NCBI GenBank assembly: GCA_965248845.1
Contig: CBDFKO010000002.1
Location: 968,063-1,032,062, forward strand
Source: Acidobacteriota bacterium
GTDB taxonomy: Bacteria; Acidobacteriota; UBA890; WLXD01
Reading direction: 5' to 3'
DNA length: 64,000 bases
Shown: positions 4,747-59,820 of the stretch, in pieces
Layout: every line of letters begins with the position of its first letter
How positions within the stretch are numbered: the first letter of the stretch is position 1
Program-made: the position numbers and the translations under genes
The notes under the pieces: model-generated
Databases searched by the model: none
The model's input: only the letters and a program-made list of their open reading frames with translations
What the model was told of the DNA's origin: nothing

Positions 4747-6843
4747 TCAGGCTCCGGCGGCCACCTTCTCCTCTTCGGTGAGTGCCTTCAACGAGAGTCG
4801 AATTCGGTTGGGCGCCTCGATCTTCACTACCTTGACCACGATCTCGTCGCCCTCGGCAACGTGCTCGCGCATGTCCTGGACGTGCTGCTCCGAAACCTCG
4901 GAGATGTGCAGTAGGCCGTCGGTGCCCGGCAGGATCTCGACGAAGGCGCCGAAGTCCTTGATCGAGCGGACCTTGCCGCGATAGACGCGGCCGACCTCGG
5001 CCTCCTGGGTGAGATCCTCGATCATCCTCCGGGCGGCATCACAGGCATCGGTGTCGGGCGAGGCGATCTGCACGGTGCCGTCGTCCTCGACGTTGATCTT
5101 GCAGCCGGTCTCCTCCTGCATCTGCCGGATGATGCGGCCGCCGGGCCCGATGATGTCGCGGATGCGATCGACCGGGATCTTCAGGCTGATGATTTGCGGC
5201 GCCCAGCGGCTGGTCTCCGGTCGCGGCGCCGACAGAGCCTCGCTCATCTTGCGCAGGATGTGCAGCCGGTTCTCGCGCGCCTGGTTCAGCGCCGTCTCGA
5301 AGATCTCCCGGGACAGACCACTGACCTTGATGTCCATCTGCAGCGCCGTGATCCCTTGCGGCGTCCCGGCGACCTTGAAGTCCATGTCACCGTAGTGATC
5401 CTCCTCGCCGGCGATGTCCGACAGGATCGCTACCGTGTCGCCCTCCTTCATCAACCCCATGGCCACACCGGCGACCGGACCCCGGATCGGTACCCCGGCG
5501 TCCATCAGCGACAGCGTACCGCCACAGATCGTTGCCATCGACGAGGAGCCGTTCGACTCGAAGATTTCCGATACCGTGCGGATCACGTACTGCCACTCGT
5601 CCTCGGGCGGGATCACGGGCGAGAGCGCCCGCTCCGCCAGGTTCCCGTGGCCGATCTCGCGCCGGCCGGGCCCTCGCATGAAGCGCGCCTCGCCGACGCT
5701 GAAGGGCGGGAAATTGTAGTGGAGCAGGAAACGCTTCCAGTACTCCCCGTTGTACTCCTCGACCTTCTTGGCATCGTCGCTCGTGCCCAAGGTCGTGGTC
5801 ACAAAGGCCTGCGTCTCTCCGCGGGTGAACAACGCCGAGCCGTGCGCTCGGGGTGAATAGCCGACCTCGCAGGTGATCGGACGCACCTCGTCAAAGGCAC
5901 GACCGTCGAAGCGAACGCCGTCCTCGAGGGCCGACTTGCGGGTGTAGCGCTTGATCAGCTCACCGAGCGCCTCGCTCACGACTGGCCCGAGCTCCTCATC
6001 CTCGGCGACCTGCTCCTTGATGGCGGCCTTCATCTCGCCCATGCGATCGCGGCGCTCGATCTTGTCGCGGACCTGCAGCGCCTCGCTGATGGGCCCGCCG
6101 GCGAGCTCCTCGATGCGTGATACCAGAGCCGGGTCGAGCACATCGGGCACGAACTCGAACTTCTCGATGCTCGCCTGCTCGCGCAGCTTCTCCTGGACGT
6201 CGATCACGGTGTCGATAAACGGCTGTACGAACTCAAGCGCTCCGATGATCTCGTCCTCGGAGACCTCCTCGGCCCCCGCCTCCACCATCATCACGGCGTC
6301 GCGGCGGGCAGCCAGCACGAGATCGAGTCGGCTTTCCTCCATCTGGCTGCTGGTCGGGTTGAGTACGTAGTCGCCGTCGATCATGCCGATGCGAAAGGCA
6401 CCGAACGGAGTGTCGAACGGGATCCGGGACAGGTTGAGCGCGAAGGAGGCGCCCACTTTGGCCAGAACACCCGGATCGTTTTCGCCATCCGCCGACAGGA
6501 CCATGCCGATGACCTGGGTCTCGTGGCGGTATCCCTTCGGAAACAAGGGCCGGATCGTCCGGTCGATCATCCTGCAGGTCAGGATCTCCTTCTCGGAGGG
6601 CCGTCCCTCACGCTTGAAGAAGCCCCCGGGGATCTTGCCCCCCGCGTAGGTCCACTCACGGTAGTCGACAGTGAGCGGCAGGAAGGAGGCCTCACGCGGC
6701 TTGCGCGCCATCACCGCTGTCACCAGAACCTTCGTGTCGCCGCACGAGACCACAACTGCCCCGTCGGCCTGGCGGGCGATTCTGCCCATCTCGACCTCGA
6801 TGGTAATGCCGCCGAGCTCGATCGTTTCACGCACTATGCTCAT
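4747..6843 (-). CDS. pnp: Polynucleotide phosphorylase (polyribonucleotide nucleotidyltransferase)
   Basis: Two RNase PH domains, KH and S1 domains. Start taken at the internal ATG 6843 (MSIVRETIELGG); the ORF-track start at 6948 adds 35 non-conserved residues. Confidence 0.95.
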   Translation of the reverse strand: MSIVRETIELGGITIEVEMGRIARQADGAVVVSCGDTKVLVTAVMARKPREASFLPLTVDYREWTYAGGKIPGGFFKREGRPSEKEILTCRMIDRTIRPLFPKGYRHETQVIGMVLSADGENDPGVLAKVGASFALNLSRIPFDTPFGAFRIGMIDGDYVLNPTSSQMEESRLDLVLAARRDAVMMVEAGAEEVSEDEIIGALEFVQPFIDTVIDVQEKLREQASIEKFEFVPDVLDPALVSRIEELAGGPISEALQVRDKIERRDRMGEMKAAIKEQVAEDEELGPVVSEALGELIKRYTRKSALEDGVRFDGRAFDEVRPITCEVGYSPRAHGSALFTRGETQAFVTTTLGTSDDAKKVEEYNGEYWKRFLLHYNFPPFSVGEARFMRGPGRREIGHGNLAERALSPVIPPEDEWQYVIRTVSEIFESNGSSSMATICGGTLSLMDAGVPIRGPVAGVAMGLMKEGDTVAILSDIAGEEDHYGDMDFKVAGTPQGITALQMDIKVSGLSREIFETALNQARENRLHILRKMSEALSAPRPETSRWAPQIISLKIPVDRIRDIIGPGGRIIRQMQEETGCKINVEDDGTVQIASPDTDACDAARRMIEDLTQEAEVGRVYRGKVRSIKDFGAFVEILPGTDGLLHISEVSEQHVQDMREHVAEGDEIVVKVVKIEAPNRIRLSLKALTEEEKVAAGA

Positions 6844-7038
6844 TCCGCTCGTCCTTTGAGCCGCACTGGGGCTCTCGTCAGGGTCGCGCTGAAGCGCAGC
6901 TGGGTTGCCCTGGTCCGAGGTATGAATCGCTAGAGTGCGTTCCGCCAAGACCGCGTCAACCGACTAACCGCTAGTTCCCTTCGCCGCGTCCGCTTTTTCC
7001 GCTTCGGCCGGCACCAACCGGCTCTATCGATTCGTAAC

Positions 7039-7293
7039 CTACCGCCGCAGCCCGAGCTCTTGGATCAGGCCTTGATAGCGCGCCACGTCCTCGCGGCACA
7101 GGTAGTCCAGCAAGCGCCGACGCTTGCCGACCAGCATCAGGAGTCCGCGCTGCGTGGCGAAGTCCTTCTTGTGAGCTTTCATATGTTCGGTGAGGTGCTT
7201 GATCCGCGAGGTCAGCTGGGCAACCTGCACCTCTGGCGAGCCCGTGTCCGAAGGGTGTCGCCGAAAATCGTCGAATGCAGTTTCCATCATCAA
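7039..7293 (-). CDS. rpsO: 30S ribosomal protein S15
   Basis: [29 protein letters not shown]...RRRLLDYL is canonical S15; lies upstream of pnp. Confidence 0.9.
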
Positions 7294-7412
7294 TCTTCTT
7301 CTGATTTCCGTTCCGCTTGCAGATACCCGAGCGTGGACACACGAATGCCTCGGTTGAATCGGGTTAGGCTAGCATAGGCCAATGGGGCTGTAAAACGCAC
7401 TCGATTCCGTTA

Positions 7413-8390
7413 CTAGTGTGACGCGGCGGAGTTCTCTTGTCTTATGGCTTTGGCGAGGATCTGGTCGGCGGACTTGAGCCAAAGGAAGGGCTCGGAGCCG
7501 TCGTTCCAGGCTCGGATGAAGCGGTGGATGGCCTTGATCAGGACATCGACGCTGCTGAAGCTGCCGCGCCGGACGGCCTGCGAGGTGAGGATGCCGAACC
7601 AGGTCTCCACCTGATTCATCCAGGAAGCGGAAGTGGGCGTGAAGTGACGCGTGAACCGCGGGTGTTGCTCGAACCAGGCCTCGACCTTGGGCTGGGTGTG
7701 GGTGCCGTAGTTGTCCAGCACCAGGTGGATCTCGCCCTCGGGGTAGGTGCGGTCGATCAAGCGTAGGAAGCGAAGAAACTCCTGGTGGCGGTGCCGCTGC
7801 ATGCAGGTGCCCAGGATCTCGGCGGTGGCTAGGTTCAACGCCGCGAACAGCGTCGTGGTGCCGTGGCGTCTGTAATCGTGGGTGCAGCGCTCTGGATCGC
7901 CGCGGCGCATGGGCAACATCGGCTGAGTCCGGTCCAGAGCCTGGATCTGGCTCTTCTCGTCCACGCACAGCACCAGCGCCCCCTGGGGCGGGTGCAGGTA
8001 CAGCCCCACGATGTCGGTGACCTTGTCCTGCAGGAGTGGATCGGCGGAGTACTTGAAGGTCTCGGTGCGATGGGGCTGCAGGCCGTTGCGCCGCCAGATC
8101 CGCAGGATCGTCGAAGGGCTCGCATCGACCTGTTTGGCGAGCCGCTGTGCGCTCCAATGGGTTCGGCTCGGAGGCCTCTCCAGGGTTGCGGCGATGATCT
8201 TGGCTTCCCGCACGGCGTCGTAGGTGCGCACACGACCAGAGCGCGGCTCGTCACCGAGATCCTCGATGCCCTGCTTGGCTGCGCGAGCGCGCCACATGCC
8301 CACGGTCTGTCGGGAGGTCTCGAGGCGCTCGGCGATCTGCTGGTTCTGCAGCCCCTGCTCGGCAAGCAGGATGATGTGGGCTCGGAACAC
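7413..8390 (-). CDS. IS630-family DDE transposase (catalytic part; GTG start)
   Basis: 325 aa with a DDE_3-like core ([12 protein letters not shown]...[10 protein letters not shown]...WMNQVE). About 55% identical to the second IS630 transposase at 56910..58001. Confidence 0.85.
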   Translation of the reverse strand: MFRAHIILLAEQGLQNQQIAERLETSRQTVGMWRARAAKQGIEDLGDEPRSGRVRTYDAVREAKIIAATLERPPSRTHWSAQRLAKQVDASPSTILRIWRRNGLQPHRTETFKYSADPLLQDKVTDIVGLYLHPPQGALVLCVDEKSQIQALDRTQPMLPMRRGDPERCTHDYRRHGTTTLFAALNLATAEILGTCMQRHRHQEFLRFLRLIDRTYPEGEIHLVLDNYGTHTQPKVEAWFEQHPRFTRHFTPTSASWMNQVETWFGILTSQAVRRGSFSSVDVLIKAIHRFIRAWNDGSEPFLWLKSADQILAKAIRQENSAASH

Positions 8391-8573
8391 CTGCCGCTGC
8401 TGTGAGCTCGGCGCGTCGATTACTCCCTGGAGCCGCTGCCCGCTGCTGCCCGGTCAACGAAATCTCCGGTGCTACCCTGGGCATCGTGGCCTCCTGTCCC
8501 GACAAGTTTACTGTCGAGACAAGGAAGTCTTAATATGCCATATAAGTCAAGCTAATTACGACGCGTTACACTA
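7414..8573. mobile_element. IS630-family insertion sequence (copy 1, ~1.16 kb) inserted into a CTAG between truB and rpsO, with TA duplication
   Basis: Flanks are tacTAgtgtgacgcgg on the left and cgcgttacacTAgcgcc on the right. Terminal inverted repeat gtgtgacgcg / gtgtaacgcg. Reconstructed empty site is aCTAGc. Confidence 0.8.
8391..8505 (-). other. N-terminal HTH segment of the IS630 copy-1 transposase, encoded in a different frame from the catalytic part (frameshift)
   Basis: MPRVAPEISLTGQQRAAAPGSNRRAELTAAAGV aligns to the N-terminus of copy 2 ([17 protein letters not shown]...[13 protein letters not shown]). The catalytic ORF lies in the -1 frame relative to it. Confidence 0.45.
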
Positions 8574-8670
8574 GCGCCGCGTCGTCGTCGAGCCCATTCG
8601 ACCCTTTGGCGAGCCGGCGGGCGCATACGTGATCGGCCTCGAATCCCGTCGCGACGAGGCCGCGACGGCG

Positions 8671-9600
8671 TCACTGCAGCACCACCCTCGGCTGCAACAT
8701 GCCCCCCGGGCGAATCTCCGCGGCCGCGATCATGGAGCCTTGCTGGTCCAGGATCCGTACCCAGCCCCCGGCCCCGGTGCCGGTGATGATGTCGCCGTCC
8801 GCACCGGCTCTGCGCTCGACGATGTGGCGGGGCTCGATGACGCCGCCGTTCCGGAGCCGGTGCAGCCCCTCCTCGCCGACCCGGGCCACAGGCCAGGTCG
8901 GAAGCATCTCGGCGCATGGAATCACAGCCGCCAGCAGATCGTCGCGCGAGACCTGCTCCAGAGAGTCCAGCAGCATGGCGCGGTCGAGGCCGAAGCCCCC
9001 GACTCCGAGACGACGCAGTGACTCCAAGTGCGAGGGATAGCCCAAGGCCTCGCCCAGGTCGCGGGCCAGCGTACGTACGTAGGTGCCCGAGCCGCAGTGC
9101 ACCCGCAGATCGATGCGCTCCCCTTCAACGGCGAGCATCTCCAGCGCGTGGATTTCCACACGAATCAGATCGTGCACCACGCTTTCGCCGCGTCGCGCCC
9201 GCTTGTACGCAGGCTGACCACGGATCTTCTTGGCCGAGTACACCGGCGGGATCTGCTCGATCGGCCCGCGAAAGCGCTCCAGTGCCTGCTCGATGGCCGT
9301 CGCGTCGAGCGGCTCGACCGTGACCGGCCCCTCCACGATCTCCCCCTCGGCGTCGTAAGTATCTGTCGCCCAGCCGAGGCGTACGCTGCAGTCGTACACC
9401 TTGTCTTGGTGCTGCAGGAAGCGACTCAGGCGTGTCGCACCACCGACACAGACGAGCAGCACCCCGGTAGCCTGTGGGTCGAGCGTGCCGGTGTGCCCAG
9501 CCCGCGCATCCAGCTGCTTGCGAACGCGCACGACAACGTCGTGGGAGGTCAGCCCTGCCGGCTTGTCGAGAACCAGCATCCCAGCGACGGCAAGGCTCAT
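8671..9600 (-). CDS. truB: tRNA pseudouridine(55) synthase
   Basis: GMLVLDKPAGLTSHDVV...HTGTLDPQATGVL with the catalytic Asp motif. Start at ATG 9600; the ORF-track extension to 9687 is not conserved. Confidence 0.9.
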   Translation of the reverse strand: MSLAVAGMLVLDKPAGLTSHDVVVRVRKQLDARAGHTGTLDPQATGVLLVCVGGATRLSRFLQHQDKVYDCSVRLGWATDTYDAEGEIVEGPVTVEPLDATAIEQALERFRGPIEQIPPVYSAKKIRGQPAYKRARRGESVVHDLIRVEIHALEMLAVEGERIDLRVHCGSGTYVRTLARDLGEALGYPSHLESLRRLGVGGFGLDRAMLLDSLEQVSRDDLLAAVIPCAEMLPTWPVARVGEEGLHRLRNGGVIEPRHIVERRAGADGDIITGTGAGGWVRILDQQGSMIAAAEIRPGGMLQPRVVLQ

Positions 9601-10571
9601 TCGTCGGCCCCTCCCGAGTCCAACACGGCCCGAATAGCGCTCATCAAGGACGCGTAGGCGTGCTCGAACTCGCCGAGGATCTGGCACCCAGCGGCGCGCC
9701 GGTGCCCCCCGCCACCGTGTGCCGACGCCAACTCGGCCACATCGATACTGCCGTCGGAGCGAAAGGATATGCGGAACACATCCGGCTCCGGCTCCTTGAA
9801 CAGCAGGCTGACACGAACCCCGGCGATTCCCTGTGCGTGGTTGATGACACCCTCGGTATCGGTCGTCCCCCGCGCCTCGAACTGATCCCGTCCCAACCGC
9901 ATCCAGGCGATCTGACCGCCTTGCTCCAGTGTCAGTGTCGTGAGCGCATCGCCCATCAACTGGACTCGACCAGCCGGCACGTTGCCAAAAACCGACGAGG
10001 CGATCGGCTCGGGGCGAGCACCCGCGGCCACCATGTCGGCCGCGAAGTAGAGCGCCGATGCGTCGGTATTGGAGTGACGGAACGATCCGGTGTCGGTGAG
10101 CAGCGCCACATACAACTGCGCAGCCATGTCGGCGTCGATCTCGGCCCCCAGCGCGCCGATCAGCTCGCCGACCATCATTCCGACCGCCGCGACCGACGCG
10201 TCGATCCAGTTGACATGCGCGTACATCCCGTTCTTGGTGTGGTGATCGATGTTGAGCGAGGGCAGCGCCTCGAGCCCTTCGAGGCCGGTCCGCGCGAAGT
10301 CGCTACACTCGACCAGAATCGCGCTGGCACACCCCTCCGGCGGCGCGCTCGCCGTCTCGATGCGCTCGGCACCCGGAAGCCAGAAGTGGCGATCGGGCAA
10401 GGCCTGGCCGATCACGACCCGCGTTCGCTTGCCGCGCTGCTCTAACGCCGCAGCCAAGGCCAACGAGGACCCCAGGGAATCCCCGTCAGGGTTCATATGG
10501 GATCCGATCACGAAGTCGTCGTGGGCCTCGAGCCAGGTGACCACGTCGGCGACGTCCTGCACGCTAGTCAT
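9597..10571 (-). CDS. nrnA: DHH-family phosphoesterase (NrnA-like oligoribonuclease/pAp phosphatase)
   Basis: DHH motifs (GSHMNPDGDSLGS, NIDHH) and a DHHA1 C-terminus (GGGHRRAAG). Start at ATG 10571; its stop overlaps the truB start in an ATGA arrangement. Confidence 0.8.
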   Translation of the reverse strand: MTSVQDVADVVTWLEAHDDFVIGSHMNPDGDSLGSSLALAAALEQRGKRTRVVIGQALPDRHFWLPGAERIETASAPPEGCASAILVECSDFARTGLEGLEALPSLNIDHHTKNGMYAHVNWIDASVAAVGMMVGELIGALGAEIDADMAAQLYVALLTDTGSFRHSNTDASALYFAADMVAAGARPEPIASSVFGNVPAGRVQLMGDALTTLTLEQGGQIAWMRLGRDQFEARGTTDTEGVINHAQGIAGVRVSLLFKEPEPDVFRISFRSDGSIDVAELASAHGGGGHRRAAGCQILGEFEHAYASLMSAIRAVLDSGGADE

Positions 10572-10959: not shown

Positions 10960-10963
10960 GGCT

Positions 10964-11157
10964 AGCAGGCCTTCGTGAAGCGCTGATGGATCTCGCGAGT
11001 ACGTCCTGCGGGCGAGGGCAAGGAGCGCCGACGAGTCGATGCGACAACATCGTCGAGGCGGCGCGACACCGCCACCATCCCGCTCGAACCCTCCGGGCAG
11101 CCGCCTGTACTCCTTGGCGGCGCAACCCGACCCATCACACTTTCACCACGGCCTGCT
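10964..11157. repeat. MITE-like element, copy A (~194 bp), CTAG at both ends with imperfect ~25-bp terminal inverted repeats; its left end supplies the rbfA SD-like GAAGG
   Basis: Left end CTAGcaggccttcgtgaagcgctgatgg; right end ccatcacactttcaccacggcctgCTAG. Internal 40-bp block cgccaccatcccgctcgaaccctccgggcagccgcc is shared with the 18302-18469 element. Confidence 0.65.
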
Positions 11158-11198
11158 AGCGGCCTAACCAGACCCATGAGAGCCTCACCAAGATCCTG

Positions 11199-11480
11199 CT
11201 AGAGGTACTCTGTCTCGACGCGCGTCAGCAGCGCCTCGGCGCTGCGCTCGACCTCGTCGACCAGCTTTTCGAACAACCCCTCCAACCGTGGCCGGCTGTT
11301 GGAAACCGAGACCGCCGCGATACACGAGCGCTGCCACAGGTCCTGGTAGGCAACCTCTGCCACCGCCACATTGAAGCGTGACGTCAGGCGGTGCAGGAGT
11401 CTCTTGATCACGCTGCGCTTGTCCTTGAGGCTGCGACAAGCGGGCAAGTGCAACTCTAGGGTGCAGGCCCCGATAACCAT
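11199..11480 (-). CDS. DUF503 (YlxP-like) protein of the infB operon
   Basis: MVIGACTLELHLPACRSLKDKRSVIKRLL is typical of DUF503; lies between infB and rbfA. Start at ATG 11480; stop TAG lies inside a CTAG. Confidence 0.8.
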   Translation of the reverse strand: MVIGACTLELHLPACRSLKDKRSVIKRLLHRLTSRFNVAVAEVAYQDLWQRSCIAAVSVSNSRPRLEGLFEKLVDEVERSAEALLTRVETEYL

Positions 11481-11502
11481 CACACTTTCACTACGGCCTC
11501 CT
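11457..11502. repeat. Miniature copy (B, ~46 bp) of the MITE family spanning the infB stop and the DUF503 start
   Basis: CTAGggtgcaggcc..ccatcacactttcactacggcctcCTAG; 27 of 29 nt identical to the copy-A right end. It encodes the last residues (SLSRRP) and TAG stop of infB, and the ATG of DUF503. Confidence 0.6.
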
Positions 11503-13641
11503 AGAGAGGCTCGGGCGGATCTCCTTGAGGACGAAGAACTCAATCATGTCGCCGACCTTGACATCGTTGAAGTTCTCGAGCGCGATACCGCACTCGTAAC
11601 CCTGGCCCACCTCGGCGACGTCGTCCTTGAAGCGTCGCAGCGATCTGACCTGCCCCTCGTAGACGATCCTCGAGTCCCGCACCAGACGCACCTTGGCGGC
11701 GCGTGTCACCTTGCCCCCGGTCACGTAGCAGCCGGCGATGGAGCCGATCCGGGGAATGCGGAAAGTCTCGCGCACCTCGGCCTGTCCGAGCTCCTCGTCC
11801 TCGAAGGTGGGGTCGAGCTTACCCACCATCGCCTGCTTGACATCGTCGATGAGCTGGTAAATGACCGTGTAGAGCCGAAGATCGACGCCGGCGCTGGCTG
11901 CGATATCCGCCACGCCACGCTCCGGGCGCACGTTGAATCCCACGATGATCGCCTCGGACGCCGAGGCCAGCAACACATCGTGCTCCGAGACGCCACCGAC
12001 CGCCGCGCGGATGATCTGCACCTCGACTTTGTCGCCTGACAGCTTGCCCAGCGCGTCACGCAGCGTCTCGGTTGAGCCCTGGGTGTCGGCCCTGAGCACG
12101 ACCGAAAGCTTCACCCGACCACCGGCTTCGATGCGCGCGTGCAGATCGGCGAGCGTCAGGCGCGTGCCACCGGCCAATGATTCGCGCCGCTGTTTGTCCC
12201 GCCGCAGTTCGGCCACCTTGCGCGCCAACGACGCTTGCTCGACGACCTGGAAGGAGTCGCCGGCTCCCGGCACGCCGGAGAAGCCGAGCACCTCGACCGC
12301 CGTCGCCGGTCCGGCCTCCTTCACGGGGTTCCCGTAGGAGTCGAACATGGCACGGACCTTGGCGCTCTCGGCGCCCGCGACCAGGCTGTCGGCTACGGCG
12401 AGCGTTCCTGCCTGGACCAGCACCGTCGCGACCGGGCCGCGTCGCCGGTCGAGCTCGGCCTCGAGCACGACGCCATGCGCCGCGATCTTGGGGTTCGCAC
12501 GCAACTCCAAGAGCTCCGACGACAGAATGATCATCTCGAGCAGCCCATCGAGGTTCTCTTTGGTCTTGGCCGAGACCGCAACGCAGACGGTATCGCCGCC
12601 CCAATCCTCCGGCGTCAAGTCACGGTCGACCAGCTGCTGCTTGGCTCGGTCGACGTTGGCCTCGGGACGATCGATCTTGTTGACCGCCACGATGATCGGC
12701 ACGTTGGCCGCGCGGGCGTGGTCGATGGCTTCCACGGTCTGCGGCATGACTCCGTCGTCGGCGGCGAGCACCAGGACCACCAGATCGGTGACCTGTGCGC
12801 CGCGGGCTCGCATTCGCGTGAAGGCCTCGTGGCCCGGGGTATCGATGAAGACGATTCGGTTGCCGTTCCATTCCACCTCGGACGCGCCGATGTGCTGCGT
12901 GATCCCGCCCGCCTCGCGCGCCACAACGTTTGTCTGCCGGATCGAATCGAGCAGATGGGTCTTGCCATGGTCGACGTGCCCCATGATGGTCACGACGGGC
13001 GCTCGGGGTTCGAGATCGTCGCTGCTACCGGTCTCGATTTCGCCGAGCAGGACCTCGTCCCGCCCCAACAACTGCAGGGCCACTCCGTGCTCGGCAGCGA
13101 TCTCCACGGCCACATCGGCATCCAGCGCCTGGTTCACGTTGGCCATGGCACCGCGGCCCATCAATTCGCGGATGATCTCCGCGGGGCTGATTCCCATGGC
13201 CTCGGCCAGTTGCCCGACCGTAGCACCCTCCTCGACCGCTACCGCGCGAGCCGGTGCCGCGGCTGCGGCAGGCTCCGGCTCGACCTCCTGCTCCGGCTCG
13301 GGCTCGGGCTCTGCGTCGGCTGCTGCCCCGGGCTCGGCCTCGGCCTCGGCCTCGAGTTCTCCTTCGGGCTCGGGCTCGGGCTCAACTTCGGGCTCGGGCT
13401 CGGGCCCTACTTCGGGCTCGGCCTCTGCCTCAGGCTCGATCTCAATCTCAGCTTCAGGCCCGGCTACCAGGGGCTCGGGGCCTTGCCCCGATTCTCCGGC
13501 AAGCGCCTGCCGCACGCGAGCCGCTTCCTCCTCGGACACCGAGTTGGCATGGCTCTTGACCGCTACGCCCAGCTCGTTGAGGGCCTGGAGGACCACCTTG
13601 CTCTCGACGTCCAGTTCCCGGGCGATCTCGTAAACCCGCAT
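11491..13641 (-). CDS. infB: Translation initiation factor IF-2
   Basis: 716 aa with the GTPase domain ([17 protein letters not shown]) and IF2 C-terminal domains. Short N-terminal region rich in EP/EA repeats. Confidence 0.95.
13254..13445. repeat. Tandem GC-rich coding repeats (ctcggg/ctcggc units) encoding the [12 protein letters not shown] tract at the IF-2 N-terminus
   Basis: Visible tandem hexamer/dodecamer periodicity inside infB. Confidence 0.6.
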
Positions 13642-17522: not shown

Positions 17523-18302
17523 GTGAGCACGGCCGAGCCTCCGGGCCTGCCGGAGACAGCTTCGGCTGCCGGCCGGCGAGAGAGTCTGCCCGAGATGTCC
17601 CTCATGGATCATCTCACCGAGCTGCGCGGGCGTTTGCTGGTCTCCGTGATCGCCGTCGTGCTCGGCGCCATCGGCGCCTGGTTCTACGCCGACGAGCTGT
17701 ACCGGCTGCTGACCCGACCCGTCGTGGAAATCTTGCCGGAACAGGACAATCGGCTGGCGTTCCTGTCGTTGACCGAGCCCTTCGTCCTCTACCTCAAGGT
17801 GGCCGGCCTGGCTGGGCTGTTCGCGGCCTCACCGGTCGTCATCTACCAGGGTTGGATGTTCGTGGCCCCCGGTCTGTACCGAAACGAGAAGCAGCACGCT
17901 TTGCCCGTCGTAGCTGCCTCCGCCGCGTGCTTTTTCGCCGGCGGCGCTTTCGGTTACTTCGTGCTGTTCCCGGTGATGGCCAACTTCTTCCTCGATCTCG
18001 GCTCCGACTTTCGCCAGGTTCTTACCGTGAACCGTCTCTTCGGCTTCCTCGTGCGAACGCTGCTGGGGTGCGCCCTCGTGTTCGAATGGCCCATCGTGGT
18101 CTTCTTTCTGGCACGCCTGGGGATCCTGACGGCCGGGGCAATGTGGAGCGGTCTCGGCTACGCCATCGTCGCGATCTTCGTCATTGCCGCCGTGGTCACG
18201 CCCACCCCCGACGCGCCCACACAGATTATCCTGGCCACGCCGATGCTATTGCTGTACTTGCTCGGTATCGGGATCGCCTGGTTGGTGCAGCCGCGCGACT
18301 AG
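17523..18302 (+). CDS. tatC: Sec-independent protein translocase TatC
   Basis: Six-TM TatC fold with the HLTELRGRL motif. Start is either GTG 17523 or ATG 17595; stop TAG lies inside the CTAG at 18299-18302. Confidence 0.9.
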   Translation: MSTAEPPGLPETASAAGRRESLPEMSLMDHLTELRGRLLVSVIAVVLGAIGAWFYADELYRLLTRPVVEILPEQDNRLAFLSLTEPFVLYLKVAGLAGLFAASPVVIYQGWMFVAPGLYRNEKQHALPVVAASAACFFAGGAFGYFVLFPVMANFFLDLGSDFRQVLTVNRLFGFLVRTLLGCALVFEWPIVVFFLARLGILTAGAMWSGLGYAIVAIFVIAAVVTPTPDAPTQIILATPMLLLYLLGIGIAWLVQPRD

Positions 18303-18469
18303 TGCTCCTGTACACAAGTACGGTGACGTTTGTTGGAGCGGGATGGTGGCGGATGCCAGGCGCACCGACGAGGCGATGTGAGCGCATCGTCGAGCGAGGT
18401 GCAACGCCGCAGACGCCACCATCCCGCTCCAACCCTCCGGGCAGCCGCCGTACTTGTGTACAGGAGCAC
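18302..18469. repeat. 168-bp nested-palindrome MITE with 22-bp perfect terminal inverted repeats that resemble IS630 ends
   Basis: Terminal repeats gtgctcctgtacacaagtacgg / ccgtacttgtgtacaggagcac, similar to the IS630 copy-2 end TAgtctcctgtaacag. Inner 20-bp inverted repeat gttggagcgggatggtggcg / cgccaccatcccgctccaac. Left flank is the CTAG of the tatC stop. Shares a ~65-bp internal block with MITE A. Confidence 0.65.
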
Positions 18470-18478
18470 TGGTGTAAG

Positions 18479-40372: not shown

Positions 40373-40534
40373 GAGCAGGCCATGGCGAGGTGTGATGCGT
40401 CGGGGCAAGTAGGTTCTACGGCCGAGGGCAAGGCTCGGCAGAGCCGGCGCAGGCACATCGTCGAGAGCGTGCCGCGAGGCATCTGCGCCCCTGGCGGCGT
40501 AACCAGCCCATCACACTTTCACCACGGCCTGGTA
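40373..40534. repeat. MITE-like element, copy C (~160 bp), in the divergent promoter region between the methyltransferase gene and the glycosyltransferase cluster
   Basis: Left end gagcaggccatggcgaggtgtgatgcg; right end cccatcacactttcaccacggcctggTAG; interior homologous to copy A (cggccgagggcaagg, acatcgtcgag). Confidence 0.6.
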
Positions 40535-40600
40535 GGAGACCGTGCTAGAGTTCAGCCTTCTTGGGGCGCCCCTGCTCCGCCTCCCATCTGCCCGCTCCCG

Positions 40601-47515: not shown

Positions 47516-48475
47516 ATGAGTGAACGCACAGAGACAGTGCTGATCACAGGTGGTGCCGGATTCATCGGCTCGCACCTCGCCGAGCATCTGCTGGGCCAGG
47601 GTGCCCGCGTGATCGTCATGGACAACTTGCTCACCGGCACCGCGAGCAACGTAGCGCGTTTCGCCAACCGCGACTACCTGTTCATCCAGCACGACGTCAC
47701 CAACTACATGTTCATCGATGAGCCGGTCGACTACGTCCTCCATTTCGCCTCGCCGGCGTCCCCGATCGACTATCTCCGCTACCCGATCCAGACGCTCAAG
47801 GTCGGTGCGCTGGGGACGCACAAGGCACTCGGCCTGGCGCGCCACAAGAACGCGGTCTTCATGTTGGCCTCGACCTCCGAGGTGTACGGCGACCCCCAGA
47901 TCAACCCGCAGCCCGAGTCCTACTGGGGGCACGTGAATCCGATCGGCCCGCGCGGCGTCTACGACGAGGCCAAGCGCTTTGGCGAGGCGATCACCATGGC
48001 CTACCACCGCAGCCACGGGCTGCGGACACGGATCGCGCGAATCTTCAACACCTACGGGCCTCGAATGCGGGTCGACGATGGACGGGCGGTGCCCAACTTC
48101 CTCATGCAGGCGCTTACGGCCGAGCCGATCACGGTGTACGGGGACGGCTCCCAGACGCGTTCCTTCTGCTACGTCGAGGACACGGTGCGTGGCCTCGTGG
48201 CACTGATGTGCTCGGCGGTCAGCGAACCGGTGAACGTCGGAAACCCGGCCGAGATCTCCATTCTGGACATCGCCCGGTTGATCGTCGACAAGACCGAGTC
48301 GAACAGCGAGATCGTGTTTCACGATCTTCCGGTCGACGATCCCAAGGTGCGACGCCCCGACATCGGCCGCGCGCACGCGGAGCTGGGTTGGGACCCGCAG
48401 ATCGACCTCGCCGAAGGTCTCGAGCTCACGATTCCCTGGTTCCGCCAGCAGCTCGCCAAGCGCCAGACCGCCTAG
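47516..48475 (+). CDS. UDP-glucuronate decarboxylase (UDP-xylose synthase), SDR family
   Basis: [10 protein letters not shown] Rossmann motif, catalytic YDEAKR and UXS-type conservation. Stop TAG lies within the CTAG that was targeted by IS5. Confidence 0.9.
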
Positions 48476-49780
48476 CAGGCTGCTGAAAAACGGCTCGAGC
48501 GCGCCATTTTGGGCTGGATCGTCTCGATCACGGTGAGTTAGCGGGGCGGCGAGTGCGAGTGCGAGGCTCTGGTTGCCGGCCGCGCCGGTATTTCTTGGGC
48601 GGTTAGTCCCGATATCGTCACGTCGCCCCCTGGAGGTTGCGCATTCTGACCAGGTTGAAGGCAGCGGCGGTGAAGGTGAACATCCAATCGACGCGTTCGG
48701 TGCCTCGGTGCCGCGTCTTGCGCATCAGCCCGACCGTCTTGGCCCATCCGAACATCTGCTCGACGAGCTTGCGTTTCCTTTGACTGACCTGGTAGCCGGG
48801 GTGGCGGGTTGTGCGCCGGTCGATGGCGCTGCGCCGATTGGTGTCGTTCTGTGCGACGTGCGGGGTGATGTTCCGATCTCGAAGCTTACGGACGCACTCG
48901 CGTGTGTCGTAGCCCTTGTCGGCCGCCAAGGTCACCCTGCGGTTACCGGAAATCTTGTCCGCCATTTGCACCGCCGCCTCTCGTTCCGCTGTCCCGGAAG
49001 CGATCGTTACGCATGCCTTGGTTGCTAACCCGTGGCGGTTGTCGATCATCAGGTGCCCCATGTAGCAGAGCTTCGACTCGGCTCCCCTACTTTTCTTGTA
49101 CAGGCGTGCGTCCGGATCGGTCCTGGAGGCGTGAGTATCGTTTGTGCGCCGTTGTTTGCGAAAATCGACGCTCGGGTTGCTGCCGCCCTCATCGGAGTCG
49201 CTCTGATCCTTCGGCTTGAAGCTCTTGTGTGAGGCCCACGCCTCGATCAGCGTACCGTCCACCGTGAAGTGCTCATCCGATAGCAGGCTGCGGCGCCGTG
49301 CCTCCGCCAGCACTTCCTGGAAGAACACCTCGGCGACCTCGCCTCCCAACACTCGATCCCGGTTCTTCGTGAACACCGTCGCATCCCACACCAGATCGTC
49401 CATGTTCAGGCCCACAAACCACCGGAACAGCAGGTTGTAGTCGAGCTGCTCCATCAGCATGCGCTCGGAGCGAATCGTGTACAGCACCTGCAGCAGCAGC
49501 GCCCGCAGCAGTTTCTCCGGCGGGATCGACGGTCGCCCCGTGTGCGAGTACAGCTTCTCGAACAGCGGCGACATCCGCCCCAGCACATCGTTGACGATCC
49601 TCAGCAGCGGCCGCAGCGGATGCTCTTTCGGTACTCGCTGCTCCGGAGATACGTAACTAAAGGCGGCCACCTGTCCCGCGTCCTCACCACGCATCTGCTC
49701 ACCTCGTTGATGCTTCGGTTTTTGCCGCGGGCTGCGTGGTTCAGAATCTACTCGAACAAGGGGAGTTTTTCAGCAGCCTG
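48476..49780. mobile_element. IS5-family insertion sequence (1305 bp) with 16-bp perfect terminal inverted repeats and a 4-bp CTAG target duplication
   Basis: Terminal repeats caggctgctgaaaaac / gtttttcagcagcctg; CTAG at 48472-48475 and 49781-49784. Confidence 0.85.
48618..49694 (-). CDS. IS5-family DDE transposase
   Basis: 358 aa with DDE_Tnp_1-like motifs (HPLRPLLRIVND..., DKGYD). Confidence 0.9.
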   Translation of the reverse strand: MRGEDAGQVAAFSYVSPEQRVPKEHPLRPLLRIVNDVLGRMSPLFEKLYSHTGRPSIPPEKLLRALLLQVLYTIRSERMLMEQLDYNLLFRWFVGLNMDDLVWDATVFTKNRDRVLGGEVAEVFFQEVLAEARRRSLLSDEHFTVDGTLIEAWASHKSFKPKDQSDSDEGGSNPSVDFRKQRRTNDTHASRTDPDARLYKKSRGAESKLCYMGHLMIDNRHGLATKACVTIASGTAEREAAVQMADKISGNRRVTLAADKGYDTRECVRKLRDRNITPHVAQNDTNRRSAIDRRTTRHPGYQVSQRKRKLVEQMFGWAKTVGLMRKTRHRGTERVDWMFTFTAAAFNLVRMRNLQGAT

Positions 49781-49804
49781 CTAGGAGACCGTGCTTCGGC
49801 CCCT

Positions 49805-54966: not shown

Positions 54967-56064
<1,098 letters not shown>

Positions 56065-56137
56065 GGGACCTCCCGCGGGACGGAGCAGGAATGGGCGAAC
56101 AGACGGGCGTCGGGCCGACGCGACGCCTCAAGTTACC

Positions 56138-56174
56138 ATAGCAGGCTGTGGTGCAAGTGTGATGGGCCTGGTAG
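56138..56174. repeat. Micro copy (~37 bp) of the MITE family in the gcvT leader
   Basis: aTAGcaggctgtggtgcaagtgtgatgggcctggTAG, i.e. left terminal motif plus the right tip. Confidence 0.5.
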
Positions 56175-56231
56175 TTCTGCCAACGGCGCCTCACGGCGCC
56201 TTCCACCGCGCGGAAGAGGCCGCAGAAAAGC

Positions 56232-56870
56232 CTACCGGACCCGCTCCCAGCCGCTGGTAGCGGCGCGGAATCGCCACACGGCGACACGGCCGGTCGCCCC
56301 ATACAAGCGCACCGCCGCAGCGTCCCCGTAAGCGTTGTGGAGATAGACCGTACCGCTACTCGTCGACCCTTCAGGGGCAACGCTCAGCCGATCGAGACGG
56401 CCGAACGCGACGCCATCCGCGGGCCGGGCGCCGGCCAGCGACGGCACCCCGGCCGGTAGACCCGCCACGATCCCGGGAAAGTCGCGTTCGAGACGAAACA
56501 CTCGACCCGTCGGCCTATCGATGTTCCGACGCAGGTCGTCCGATCGGAGGCCGTCCCCATCGCCATCCTCGAGCTCGTGCCATTCCAGACCGTCCACCGT
56601 GTAGAACTGAAGGCCGAAGTGCCGGCCGTGGGCGCTCGCTCTCGCTTGCAAGACGGCGACCTGCGTCGCAATCGCGCCGCAGGCCGACAGGAGCTGTTGG
56701 CTCTGGCGCCATCGGACCCAGGCGGGAGCAGCCGTCTGCACGAGTAGCCCTACGATCGCGAGGCACACGGTCAACTCGAGCAGTGAGACGCCCGCTGCCC
56801 GGAAGGCTACGCCGCCAGCGGCGCGTCCTTGACGGTGGCACCGTAACCAGACCCACCACACTTTCACCAC
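56232..56870 (-). CDS. Orphan prepilin-type N-terminal cleavage/methylation domain protein (GspH/FimT-like minor pseudopilin); 5' end lies within a MITE copy
   Basis: AAG|VSLLELTVCLAIVGLL prepilin motif with Glu at +5; GspH-like C-terminus. No other T2SS/T4P genes nearby. The GTG start falls inside the repeat caccacactttcacc. Confidence 0.55.
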   Translation of the reverse strand: MVKVWWVWLRCHRQGRAAGGVAFRAAGVSLLELTVCLAIVGLLVQTAAPAWVRWRQSQQLLSACGAIATQVAVLQARASAHGRHFGLQFYTVDGLEWHELEDGDGDGLRSDDLRRNIDRPTGRVFRLERDFPGIVAGLPAGVPSLAGARPADGVAFGRLDRLSVAPEGSTSSGTVYLHNAYGDAAAVRLYGATGRVAVWRFRAATSGWERVR

Positions 56871-56879
56871 GGTCTCCTA
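56850..56879. repeat. MITE-family right-end copy (D) immediately left of IS630 copy 2
   Basis: gacccaccacactttcaccacggtctccTA. Confidence 0.6.
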
Positions 56880-58080
56880 GTCTCCTGTAACAGTGGTTCG
56901 CAGCATAAGTCATGAGGCGTGTTGGTCGAGAGTGCGCTGTGCGAACCGGGCGATGGGAGCCAGGATCTCGTCGGCACTCTTGCACCACACGAACGGCTCG
57001 GGGGTCTCGTTGTGCGCATCGATGAACTCCCAGATAGCTGCCACCAGCGCTGCGACACTGCAATGAGATCCGCGGCGGATCTGCTTGTTGGTCAGCTCGG
57101 CGAACCAGCGCTCGACCTGGTTGAGCCACGAGGCATAGGTAGGGGTGAAGTGCAGGTGGAAGCGTGGCCGTTTGGCCAGCCAGGTGTGGATCATCGGGCT
57201 CTTGTGGGTGCCGTAGTTGTCCAGGACCAGATGCACCTGCAGTTGGGCAGGCACCTGCTCATCGATCATGTCCAGGAACTTGCGGAACTCCACCGAGCGA
57301 TGCCGGCGGTGAGTCTGAGCCAGAACGGTTCCCGTCTTGATGTCCAAGGCGGCGAACAACGATGTCGTTCCATGGCGTTGGTAGTCATGCGTGCGCCGCT
57401 CCATCTGGCCGGGCCGCATGGGTAGCAACGGCTGTGTCCGATCCAGTGCCTGGATCTGGCTCTTTTCGTCCACGCACAGCACCACCGCGTGCTCGGGCGG
57501 GTTGACATACAACCCGACGACGTCGCGCACCTTGTCCACCAGTAACGGGTCGGGCGAGAGCTTGAACGTCTCGGTGCGGTGTGGCTTGAGACCAAAGGCA
57601 CGCCAGATCCGGCTGATTGTGGCGTGGCTCAAGCCGGTCGCCTTGGCCATCGACCGGGTGGACCAGTGGGTGGCCCCACGCGGGGTACTCTCCAAGGTGC
57701 GGATGATCACCTGTTCGACCTGGGCGTCCGTGATCTTGCGCGGCGCTCCGGGTCGCGGTTCGTCGTACAGGCCATCGAGACGATCCGACACGAAGCGTGC
57801 CCGCCATTTGCCCACGGTGCTCGGTGACAGCTGCAAGCGCTTGGCCACGGCCTTGTTGTCGTGTCCCTGCGCGCAGGCCAGGACGATGCGCGCGCGGCGT
57901 GCCGGGGCGGGGGCGGTGCGGGATCGATGCGCCAACGAGTTCAGGTGTGCCTCCTCCTGTGGCGTCAGCGTTAAGGGAGCCTTGGGTCGACCGGTGCGCA
58001 TGCGACAATCTCCTGTGCTCAGCTACAGGTTCAACATATGCACACTATAACTTATATCAGTTATTTCTGATACAGGAGAC
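56880..58080. mobile_element. IS630-family insertion sequence (copy 2, 1201 bp) inserted at the TA of a CTAG between two MITE arms
   Basis: TA duplications at 56878-56879 and 58081-58082. Terminal inverted repeat gtctcctgtaacag / gtctcctgtatcag with AT-rich subterminal sequence. Confidence 0.85.
56910..58001 (-). CDS. IS630-family DDE transposase (full length, N-terminal HTH plus DDE core)
   Basis: 363 aa; aligns with the copy-1 transposase over its whole length. Confidence 0.9.
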
Positions 58081-58127
58081 TAGCGGCCCGTGGTGAAAGT
58101 GTGATTAAGCGGCCCGCCGCTTGGTAG
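58081..58127. repeat. MITE-family left-end/micro copy (E) immediately right of IS630 copy 2
   Basis: TAgcggcccgtggtgaaagtgtgatt...cttggTAG. Together with D it forms a 16-bp perfect palindrome, cacactttcaccacgg / ccgtggtgaaagtgtg, centred on the TA that was duplicated. Confidence 0.6.
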
Positions 58128-58158
58128 GCCGACGATCTGGCGCTACCCTGAAGCCGGC

Positions 58159-59820
58159 ATGAAATGCGGAACCAGGCTCATGGCGTGGCGCACCCTTCCG
58201 GCGATCGGGGCCTGCCTTCCCCAGCTGGTTGCGGTCGCCGCCTGCGCGTCCCCTGCCCCCATGACCGTGATCGGACTAGTCCCGGCCCCCGCCTCCATGA
58301 CCCTGGGTTCCGGGCTCTTTCGCCTGACGGTCGCGACGGAAGTAGCGCAGCCTCCGCCCGAGCTCGCGAGCGTCGTCGCGCGACAGATCGAGGCGCTGCG
58401 CCGTAGCACCGGGCTGCCACTCGCCGATGCGGCGAACGACGCCTTGGGCATCCGTGTGGTAGCTGACGCGACGCTCCCGGCGGAGGGATACCGACTGCGC
58501 GTGGTGCCGGGCGAGCTGAGCATCGAGGCCTCGACCGAAGCCGGCGTCTTCTACGCCTTCCAGACGCTGCGTCAGCTGCTGCCGCCCGAGATCGAGTCGG
58601 ACACCCCGGTGCAAGGCGTCGACTGGACGATCCCCACGCTCGAGATCGAGGATGCGCCGCGCTTCCCCTACCGGGGCATGCACCTCGACGTTGGCCGCCA
58701 CTTCTTCCCGGTCGAGGTCGTCAAGAAGTACATCGACACCATCGCGCGCTTCAAGTTCAACCGCTTGCACTGGCACCTGACCGAGGATCAGGGCTGGCGT
58801 GTCCAGATCGACGCCTACCCCAGGCTCACCGAAGTCGGCGCCTGGCGCGCTGAGAGTCCCGCCGACGGAAACCGCGAAATCTACACCGGCGACGGCACCC
58901 CGCACGGAGGCTTCTACACCAAGCAGCAGATCCGCGAGGTCGTCGTCTACGCCCAGGAGCGCTTCGTTACCGTGGTCCCCGAGATCGAGATGCCCGGCCA
59001 CGCCACCGCCGCGATCGCTGCCTACCCCGAGCTCGGCTGCACCGACGAGCAGCTCGAGGTCTCCACCATCTGGGGCATCCACGACACCATCTACTGCCCC
59101 CAGGAGGAGACCTTCGAGTTCCTCGAGACCGTGCTCTCGGAGGTCATGGAGCTGTTCCCCTCCGAGTACCTGCACATCGGCGGCGACGAGGTTCCCAAGC
59201 GCCAATGGCAGGAGAGCGAGCTGGCCCAGGAGGTCATTCGCCGCGAGGGCCTGGCCGACGAGGACGAGCTGCAAAGCTGGTTCATCCGCCGCATCGAGCG
59301 CCACCTGCGCGCCAACGGCCGCCGCCTGATCGGCTGGGACGAGATCCTCGAGGGAGGGCTAGCGCCCGACGCCACCGTCATGTCCTGGCGCGGCAACGAG
59401 GGTGGCATCGAGGCCGCCCACCAGGGCCACAACGTCATCATGACCCCCATCGAGCACGCCTACTTCGACTTCTACCAGGGCGACGAGGCCACCGAGCCCC
59501 TGGCCATGGACTGGGCCGGCTTCCCGATCACCCTGCAGACAGTCTACGAGTTCGAGCCGGTTCCGGAGGTCCTGACCGAGCAGCAGGCCGAGCATATCCT
59601 CGGAGCCCAGGGCAACGTCTGGACCGAGTACATCAGCACGCCGGAGTACCTCGAGTACATGGCCTTCCCGCGGGCGCTGCCCATGGCAGAGGTGGTCTGG
59701 AGCCCGCGCGTGAGCCGCGACTGGCCGGGCTTCGTGGAACGGCTTGCAAGCGTGCTGCCGCACCTGGATGCCCTGGAGGTCAGCTACCGCTTTCCTGCGG
59801 AGGTGATCCACGACCGCTGA
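58159..59820 (+). CDS. Beta-N-acetylhexosaminidase, GH20 family, probable lipoprotein
   Basis: GH20 catalytic motifs (HLDVGRHFF, HWHLTEDQGWR, D-E catalytic pair); N-terminal signal with a cysteine. Confidence 0.9.
   Translation: MKCGTRLMAWRTLPAIGACLPQLVAVAACASPAPMTVIGLVPAPASMTLGSGLFRLTVATEVAQPPPELASVVARQIEALRRSTGLPLADAANDALGIRVVADATLPAEGYRLRVVPGELSIEASTEAGVFYAFQTLRQLLPPEIESDTPVQGVDWTIPTLEIEDAPRFPYRGMHLDVGRHFFPVEVVKKYIDTIARFKFNRLHWHLTEDQGWRVQIDAYPRLTEVGAWRAESPADGNREIYTGDGTPHGGFYTKQQIREVVVYAQERFVTVVPEIEMPGHATAAIAAYPELGCTDEQLEVSTIWGIHDTIYCPQEETFEFLETVLSEVMELFPSEYLHIGGDEVPKRQWQESELAQEVIRREGLADEDELQSWFIRRIERHLRANGRRLIGWDEILEGGLAPDATVMSWRGNEGGIEAAHQGHNVIMTPIEHAYFDFYQGDEATEPLAMDWAGFPITLQTVYEFEPVPEVLTEQQAEHILGAQGNVWTEYISTPEYLEYMAFPRALPMAEVVWSPRVSRDWPGFVERLASVLPHLDALEVSYRFPAEVIHDR

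Follow-up and report, generated by a model that had tools for sequence, protein, structure and literature searches.

We analysed a locus in an Acidobacteriota bacterium at which an insertion sequence (IS) of the IS630 family, here called copy 2, is enclosed by two short termini of a miniature inverted-repeat transposable element (MITE) and lies directly upstream of a gene for a GspH/FimT-like prepilin. The locus is part of a 64,000-nucleotide stretch of DNA (assembly GCA_965248845.1, contig CBDFKO010000002.1, positions 968,063 to 1,032,062), which is referred to as the window and to which all coordinates without a locus prefix refer. The original prediction, made from the sequence, held that the IS had split a palindrome formed by two abutting MITE arms, after selecting the TA at the tip of a hairpin or cruciform. 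Comparison with a closely related haplotype (L130) points to a different history, in which CTAG sites rather than palindromes would have guided the insertions and in which the two arms would have been brought together only by the event that placed the IS between them. The features of the locus are as follows.

54967..56064, minus strand: gcvT, the conserved neighbour downstream of the pilin gene (same order in L001, L002, L105, and L130)
56139..56183, plus strand: solo remnant of a MITE terminus between the pilin gene and gcvT, adjacent to a conserved CTATGGTA motif
56232..56867, minus strand: GspH/FimT-like prepilin gene (open reading frame to 56870; likely start GTG 56867, alternatives 56870 and 56861; cleavage at AAG/VSLLELTV)
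56841..56877, minus strand: arm 1, a MITE terminus remnant of about 37 nt, 95% identical to positions 1-41 of the 277-bp MITE, after which the match stops
56878..56879: left TA, part of CTAG; identity with haplotype L130 stops exactly here
56880..58080, minus strand: IS630-family insertion sequence copy 2, 1201 bp, with inverted ends GTCTCCTGTA(A/T)CAG, read in the sequence and by an inverted-repeat search
56910..58001, minus strand: IS630 transposase gene, 363 aa, immediately preceding the pilin gene in the same orientation
58081..58082: right TA, part of CTAG, read in the sequence
58083..58105, plus strand: arm 2, a 23-nt remnant of a variant MITE terminus (GCGGCCCGTGGTGAAAGTGTGAT) ahead of the GH20 gene
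58180..59820, plus strand: GH20 beta-hexosaminidase gene (Pfam Glyco_hydro_20, 2.8e-121), taken to be a non-ancestral neighbour of the pilin gene

An IS630-family element between two MITE termini

Copy 2 is an ordinary member of the IS630 family. Its transposase matches the NCBIfam model NF033545 (IS630) with 292.5 bits against a cut-off of 100 (3.8e-87) and carries the Pfam domain DDE_3 (PF13358) together with the N-terminal helix-turn-helix domains PF13565 and PF13551; the element has terminal inverted repeats (GTCTCCTGTAACAG and CTGATACAGGAGAC, read over 55600-58700), a preference for CTAG, and a TA on either side, at 56878-56879 and 58081-58082, so that the TA duplications proposed in the original prediction are indeed present. 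A second copy of this element (IS630-2), 99.5% identical, sits in locus L109, and the transposase protein cluster (P0014) has seven members, full-length or partial, on the source contig.

The two flanks, when joined without the IS, read cacactttcaccacggtctccTAgcggcccgtggtgaaagtgtg, i.e., 16-bp perfect arms with a 12-nt spacer and the TA at its centre; the arms CACACTTTCACCACGG and CCGTGGTGAAAGTGTG are perfectly complementary, as had been predicted, and are separated by tctccTAgcggc once the IS is removed. As single-stranded DNA the joined 44-mer is predicted to fold (-24.3 kcal/mol, z = -6.8) into a 16-bp stem capped by a 12-nt loop that has the TA at its midpoint. A chance match of the arm 16-mer is not a credible explanation, since it occurs seven times in the window with at most 3 mismatches, against 0.32 occurrences expected. 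Both arms proved to be MITE termini, again in line with the prediction; arm 1 matches the canonical 277-bp MITE, while the terminus of arm 2 recurs identically, over 25 nt, on a MITE copy in L035.

The repeat that forms the arms is a genuine MITE family, non-coding, with inverted ends and CTAG/TA flanks, and abundant in metagenome-assembled genomes (MAGs) of Acidobacteriota. A scan of the genome collection for its core motif returned at least 102 stretches, and the following figures refer to the matches listed: almost all lay in Acidobacteriota MAGs, 19 of 31 plus/minus pairs had an identical spacing of 243 nt, which defines a 277-bp unit with 31-nt inverted ends GCAGGCCGTGGTGAAAGTGTGGTGGGTCTGG, 125 of 160 termini were preceded by C-TA (junction CTAG), and approximately 40% of the termini were solo termini or micro-derivatives of 31-60 nt. 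A target duplication of either 2 bp or 4 bp fits these flanks, as the target is nearly always CTAG. No IS630 transposase that could represent an autonomous parent was found in the 102 loci listed, and derivation of the MITE by deletion from either IS630 copy in the window is ruled out by their unrelated ends. The repeat fits no described RNA family (no Rfam matches in the whole window), and a literature search for MITEs in Acidobacteria returned general surveys only, with no description of the 277-bp family. The only inverted pair of termini at a spacing of 1.3 kb, at L081:1290-2644, encloses a gene for a 428-aa protein with RidA-like repeats and no transposase, and may be either a cassette-like structure or two independent remnants.

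A related haplotype without the IS and the second arm

The second member of the pilin's 90% cluster comes from a 9974-bp ENA contig, L130. Positions 6318-9974 of this contig are 99.6% identical to window positions 56880 down to 53219; this shared stretch takes in arm 1, the pilin gene, the solo terminus, gcvT, gcvH, and gcvP and breaks off precisely at the left TA. Past this TA, L130 carries no second arm; it continues as ...ggttggcagcggC-TAG-GAGACCGTGGTGAAAGTG..., with an intact gene for a 113-aa ComEA-like protein whose stop codon lies within the CTAG, and further upstream come proS, in opposite orientation, and an IS5 copy. Arm 1 is present in identical form between the comEA stop and the pilin gene. 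The outcome that the original prediction had named as its refutation, a pilin gene in related genomes with an ordinary upstream region and no palindrome, is thus observed, and the claim that the IS split a pre-existing palindrome is not confirmed by this comparison.

Since the same comEA-pilin order recurs in related loci (L001, L002, and L105-L108), the L130 order would be the ancestral one and the order in the window the derived one. Arms 1 and 2 probably originate from different ancestral loci, and the palindrome would have been assembled by the event that placed the IS. On the arm 2 side, the GH20 hexosaminidase is present on the source contig in a 546-aa form; the other members of its protein cluster are unrelated 54-aa proteins only. 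The comEA gene of the source genome (P0141) lies elsewhere on the same 4,360,038-bp contig and encodes a protein 99% identical to that of L130, which rules out that comEA was simply deleted. P0141 also carries a change from P to S, relative to L130, in the conserved GIGPATA motif.

CTAG as the insertion target

Both IS630 copies in the window are inserted in cTAg, and among 21 loci with transposase homologues at 76-100% identity, the flanks read CTA-IS-TAG in 18, which are all the loci in which both ends could be placed. IS630 has been reported to transpose to the TA in 5'-CTAG-3' (Tenzen & Ohtsubo 1991, cited in PMC2170065). Approximately half of the junctions of the window lineage adjoin no repeat, and these non-repeat flanks share CTAG alone. 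From these flanks we take the target of this lineage to be the TA within CTAG. The proposed choice of a hairpin tip is not borne out, as all delimited junctions read CTA-IS-TAG with or without a repeat and the IS-free site in L130 is no palindrome.

CTAG is scarce in the window, with 42 sites, approximately five-fold fewer than the 196 predicted by base composition (a Markov estimate gives 91); by a rough manual count about one fifth of these sites are at MITE termini or remnants, and six more are at three IS elements. Because G is the first and C the last base of these elements, a CTAG that receives an insertion becomes two, and because CTAG is rare yet regenerated at element ends, elements would be expected to pile up end to end. 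Several such arrangements were observed. At 11157-58, the MITE at 10963-11159 and a 41-nt micro-MITE share one TA; in L098, a truncated terminus and a full MITE share one TA in an IS-free, head-to-head "palindrome"; in L130, an IS5 end abuts an IS630-type micro-MITE; and at L109:2509-2710, IS630-2 lies between an IS5 end and an inverted-repeat element of about 196 bp (ends GTACTCCAATCCATAACTACGATG...). A MITE terminus is found on both sides of an IS630 relative in L114, L116/L117, and L118. Overall, approximately 21 of 37 junctions of the IS630 lineage adjoin a GCAGNCCGTGGT... terminus when counted raw, and roughly 8-9 of about 21 when redundant loci are collapsed; a modest extra preference for MITE ends is conceivable. 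Provided that the other CTAGs are mostly inside genes, supply and tolerance would explain the association between IS and MITE without any recognition of a hairpin.

A MITE terminus as probable translation-initiation region of the pilin gene

The start of the pilin gene had been placed within the MITE arm, and this holds for every candidate start; the only in-frame starts upstream of the cleavage site G/VSLLE are the GTGs at 56870, 56867, and 56861, all of which are within the repeat, while no in-frame ATG, GTG, or TTG was found between the MITE remnant and the cleavage site in the window or in L130. The sequence TAGGAGA, which resembles a ribosome-binding site (RBS) and includes the TA, is located 6 nt before GTG 56867, and this GTG is the annotated start in entries P0001 and P0134; it appears to be the start in use. 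The stop codon of comEA in L130 (TAG) is formed by the TA together with the initial G of the MITE.

In more distant relatives the pilin gene begins differently. The MITE core was not found in L001, L002, or L105-L108, where the pilin starts at or just past the end of comEA without the repeat; a short leader runs over the 3' end of comEA, which in L002 reads MRRTAG/NSLPE and in L001 has its GTG 8 nt ahead of the stop of comEA. The comparison supports the suggestion that the 5' end of the gene was rebuilt by the element, with RBS, start codon, and the first approximately nine codons supplied by the MITE. This co-option would be older than the IS, because arm 1 is identical beside comEA in the IS-free L130. 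No convincing start codon of a pre-MITE comEA/pilin junction was recovered from L130. The RBS and the GTG are the same before and after the rearrangement; about 40 nt now separate the pilin gene from the transposase gene upstream, which has the same orientation, and transcription of the pilin gene is likely to come from read-through. A promoter scan of 55.9-58.3 kb returned no promoters and weak terminator-like sites only.

MITE ends also adjoin gene boundaries elsewhere in the window. A MITE-terminus remnant at 11460-11504 lies between infB and a DUF503 gene. It includes the ATG of the DUF503 gene as well as the final three codons and the stop of infB (CCGTAGTG, which differs from the consensus CCGTGGTG at one position), and is, after arm 1, a second MITE end in the window that provides gene-boundary signals. 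In the same infB-rbfA cluster, a full MITE of about 197 bp and a 41-nt micro-MITE occupy 10963-11201 between the DUF503 gene and rbfA, and the rbfA ATG is 2 nt from the MITE end.

The pilin and its ComEA-like partner

The pilin carries a prepilin class III signal (AAG/VSLLELTVCLAIVGLLV, with G at -1, E at +5, and a hydrophobic N-terminal helix). In an alignment of 12 family members, E32 (+5) is invariant, and the family is further marked by an EDGDGDG motif and by GATGR close to the C-terminus. Matches of the window pilin to N_methyl and TIGR02532 are below the cut-off (NCBIfam/Pfam), TIGR01708 reaches 25.5 bits, short of its cut-off of 80, and covers the N-terminal part only, and PF12019 is present in the homologues P0005, P0010, P0012, and P0013. 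The AlphaFold model has a predicted local distance difference test (pLDDT) score of 85, dropping to below 50 in the MITE-derived leader (residues 1-25). All of the ten top-ranked PDB matches of the model are chains of EpsH, GspH, or FimU (probability 0.99-1.0, target-normalised TM-score 0.51-0.71), and the assignment as a minor pilin with a predicted GspH/FimT fold holds. A metagenome scan for close relatives of the pilin found none.

As the original prediction stated, no pilus or secretion gene is present among the neighbours checked within approximately 10 kb of the pilin gene; no second prepilin motif was found in the window. The idea that the gene is stranded or decaying fared differently in its two parts. 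The pilin is indeed stranded from a comEA partner, whereas its lone position is by itself no sign of decay, because the FimT of Legionella, a GspH-family pilin, is also encoded alone and FimT-type pilins are typically orphan genes (PMC8897410).

A comEA-like gene, rather than a type II secretion system or type IV pilus cluster, is the conserved partner. It is found immediately upstream of the pilin gene in five contexts (L001, L002, L106/L107, L108, and L130), and in L105 a 128-aa open reading frame lies between the two genes; proS is located upstream of comEA on the opposite strand in L001 and L130. The partner is a small exported protein with the helix-hairpin-helix domain HHH_3 (PF12836), which matches the L001 protein at 1.1e-23 and is also found in L105, L106, L108, and L130. 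In the window itself, tblastn detected no comEA-like gene. The adjacent HHH_3 gene suggests a link between the pilin and DNA uptake. 

Downstream, the pilin is followed by gcvT, and the solo MITE terminus in the spacer between them is missing at the orthologous place in L001 and L002 and present in L130. Upstream of gcvT, the CTATGGTA motif does not vary between the window, L001, and L002, and is a possible -10 promoter element; an Rfam search found no glycine riboswitch. The possibility that the pilin is cargo of a MITE-like cassette, with termini at 56139 and 56877, was rejected, as the pilin-gcvT order is ancestral in L001, L002, and L105.

Proposed history and alternative explanations

Layered transposition into the TA of CTAG, followed by recombination between IS copies, is in our judgement a reasonably probable explanation of the locus. 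A 277-bp MITE copy would have landed at the 3' end of comEA in the species ancestor and decayed to a terminus of about 37 nt, leaving a remnant that forms the comEA-pilin spacer and contributes part of the comEA stop, the RBS, and the pilin GTG. An active IS630 element that inserts only in the TA of CTAG would then have entered that CTAG, with element termini, at which this rare site is regenerated, serving as safe landing sites. This IS copy would finally have recombined with an identical copy beside another MITE terminus upstream of the GH20 gene, which would have parted comEA and proS from the pilin gene and gcvTHP and left a single IS enclosed by two MITE termini in head-to-head orientation. 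The most likely mechanism, being the simplest, is homologous recombination between two IS630-2 copies; the order of events given here is likewise a probable one. A recombinant of this kind looks like a simple insertion because every copy has a TA on both sides.

Several observations weigh against this history. The ComEA protein of the source genome (P0141) has 104 aa compared to 113 aa in L130 and ends 9 codons earlier. Because P0141 is shorter, the comEA side is not simply intact up to the TA, and an extra nonsense change or a small IS-adjacent deletion is required. Its length and the P to S change could result from relaxed selection once comEA and the pilin gene were parted, from a deletion beside the IS, or from normal variation between strains. 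In addition, the L130 contig has a coverage of 2.7x and differs from the window pilin by at least one frameshift, and GC skew across the IS junction, which shows no discontinuity, is uninformative.

The reading of the original prediction, in which the arms already abutted as a 16-bp palindrome or cruciform and IS630 chose the TA at the hairpin tip in the manner of IS1397 or IS621 in repetitive extragenic palindromic (REP) sequences, draws on the strong predicted fold of the reconstructed site with the TA at the loop centre, on the uninterrupted head-to-head MITE pair in L098, and on the IS relatives between inverted MITE termini. However, comEA past the same TA in L130 would then require a prior rearrangement that broke exactly at this TA, many insertions of this lineage are bordered by a single MITE terminus or by none at all, with CTAG alone in common and no extended motif in the non-MITE flanks, and the two-sided cases are on short metagenome contigs that could equally be IS-IS recombinants or assembly artefacts; we regard this reading as very improbable. 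An assembly chimera, in which the contig was mis-joined across the repeated 1.2-kb IS and the real pilin locus resembles L130, with or without an IS at the CTAG, also seems quite improbable. While the IS is multi-copy (the seven cluster members on the contig), a haplotype with the ancestral order co-occurs in at least one sample, and the breakpoint coincides exactly with the repeat boundary, a contig of 4.36 Mb points to long reads, for which 1.2 kb is normally no obstacle, the sequence of either junction is consistent in itself, and the differences between the source comEA and that of L130 (P to S and a shorter C-terminus) suggest a distinct strain.

A further alternative concerns the target rather than the rearrangement, namely that this IS630 lineage truly prefers the ends of other TA-flanked elements beyond CTAG, through DNA structure or bound transposase. 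The junction counts given above, together with the finding that all four junctions of the two copies in this species adjoin element ends (arm 1, arm 2, IS5, and the inverted-repeat element) although only about 20% of the CTAGs in the window are at such ends, speak for this preference. Selection alone would enrich surviving insertions at element ends if most other CTAGs are genic, however, and the junctions are non-independent, with the same loci in several samples; moreover, the ends of the IS and of the MITE are unrelated in sequence, and the non-MITE flanks again have only CTAG in common. A true preference for element ends is considered rather unlikely. Beyond the layered-transposition history itself, we put forward only tentatively, as a possibility with the balance against it, that the ComEA-like protein and the FimT-like pilin form a conserved, translationally coupled DNA-uptake pair in Acidobacteriota, with a MITE end co-opted in this species as RBS, start, and signal-peptide extension, and/or that TA-in-CTAG elements form self-propagating "CTAG traps" which concentrate IS630, IS5-type, and MITE insertions at operon junctions (stop codons C-TAG) and lead to strain-level break-up of operons.

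Other repeat elements in the window

One further insertion sequence shares features with the MITE:

48474-49782, with the transposase gene at 48618-49694 on the minus strand: IS5-family insertion sequence (NF033581, 1.2e-84), CTAG on both sides, ends GCAGGCTGCTGAAAAA

The IS5 copies in L130 and L109 are 92.5-93% identical to it. The terminal GCAGGC and the CTAG flanks are common to this element and the MITE, with weak similarity further in, and the IS5 element is a candidate relative of the parent of the MITE on account of the shared GCAGGC.

Short GGAGACCGTG remnants beside CTAG, with the same variant terminus as arm 1, are found at 956, 40536, and 49785; one adjoins the IS5 element and one adjoins a MITE at approximately 40374-40535. 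They may be footprints or a sub-family, and their first six bases, GGAGAC, are the reverse complement of the IS630-2 terminus GTCTCC. A separate MITE of 172 bp with IS630-like ends (GTGCTCCTGTACACAAGTACGG) is located at 18300-18471, and a 41-nt micro version of it, at L130:4271-4314, adjoins an IS5 end with one TA in common.

Significance and comparison with known systems

The locus is best filed under known kinds, namely transposable elements nested by way of CTAG, a strain-specific rearrangement mediated by an IS, and a MITE end co-opted as a translation-initiation region. For elements that duplicate TA, it illustrates that matching duplications and a neat reconstructed site are no proof that the flanks were once contiguous. 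An active IS630 lineage would here separate a conserved comEA-pilin pair within one species, and if this pair serves DNA uptake, competence could vary between co-existing strains. What appears new is an abundant MITE family of uncultured Acidobacteriota whose termini are built into gene boundaries as stop codons, start codons, and RBS. Elements that target CTAG may, as a possible general rule, stack at each other's ends in CTAG-depleted genomes.

Compared to IS630 of Shigella sonnei (IS630/Tc1/mariner), the window element is alike in its DDE_3 plus helix-turn-helix transposase, short inverted ends, TA duplication, and preference for CTAG. The likeness is at the family level; the window lineage recurs beside unrelated MITE termini, for which there is no such report for IS630 in the literature consulted. 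Bacterial MITEs such as Correia/NEMIS, ERIC, and RPE are short, non-coding elements with inverted ends and TA-type flanks, present in many copies in intergenic or operon-internal positions, and they contribute expression signals or codons to adjacent genes. The Acidobacteriota MITE is a different sequence family, many copies of which are cut to micro-forms of 31-60 nt or solo termini.

FimT of Legionella pneumophila is a DNA-receptor minor pilin of the GspH/FimT family that is encoded away from pilus operons; FimT has been described in Gammaproteobacteria, with a C-terminal GRxR, located in a flexible tail, as DNA-binding motif (PMC8897410). The window pilin resembles it in its class III signal, its GspH/FimU/EpsH-like predicted fold, and its position away from pilus operons, and many of its relatives carry G-R-[VI]-R; this motif is present near the C-terminus in 6 of the 12 aligned sequences. 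The window pilin and its two closest relatives have GRVA/GRVAL instead, in a predicted beta-strand approximately 15 residues from the end. Binding of DNA by the window pilin is hypothetical, and its identity to solved GspH-family structures is approximately 12-13%.

The IS that target REP sequences and the bacterial interspersed mosaic elements (BIMEs) composed of them, such as IS1397, ISKpn1, IS621, and ISPpu9/10 (PMC1525189), likewise combine an IS with a dispersed palindromic repeat and an apparent insertion in the middle of an inverted repeat. These IS recognise the palindrome itself, and their IS-free sites are palindromes (Tobes & Pareja 2006, PMC1525189); such targeting has been reported for the IS3, IS110, IS4, IS256, and IS5 families, not for IS630 (PMC1525189). 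By contrast, the IS-free site of the window locus, as represented by L130, is comEA-CTAG-arm 1 and no palindrome, and insertions of the lineage are not confined to the repeat. The likeness thus seems superficial, and it is CTAG, rather than the palindrome, that would decide where the window element inserts.

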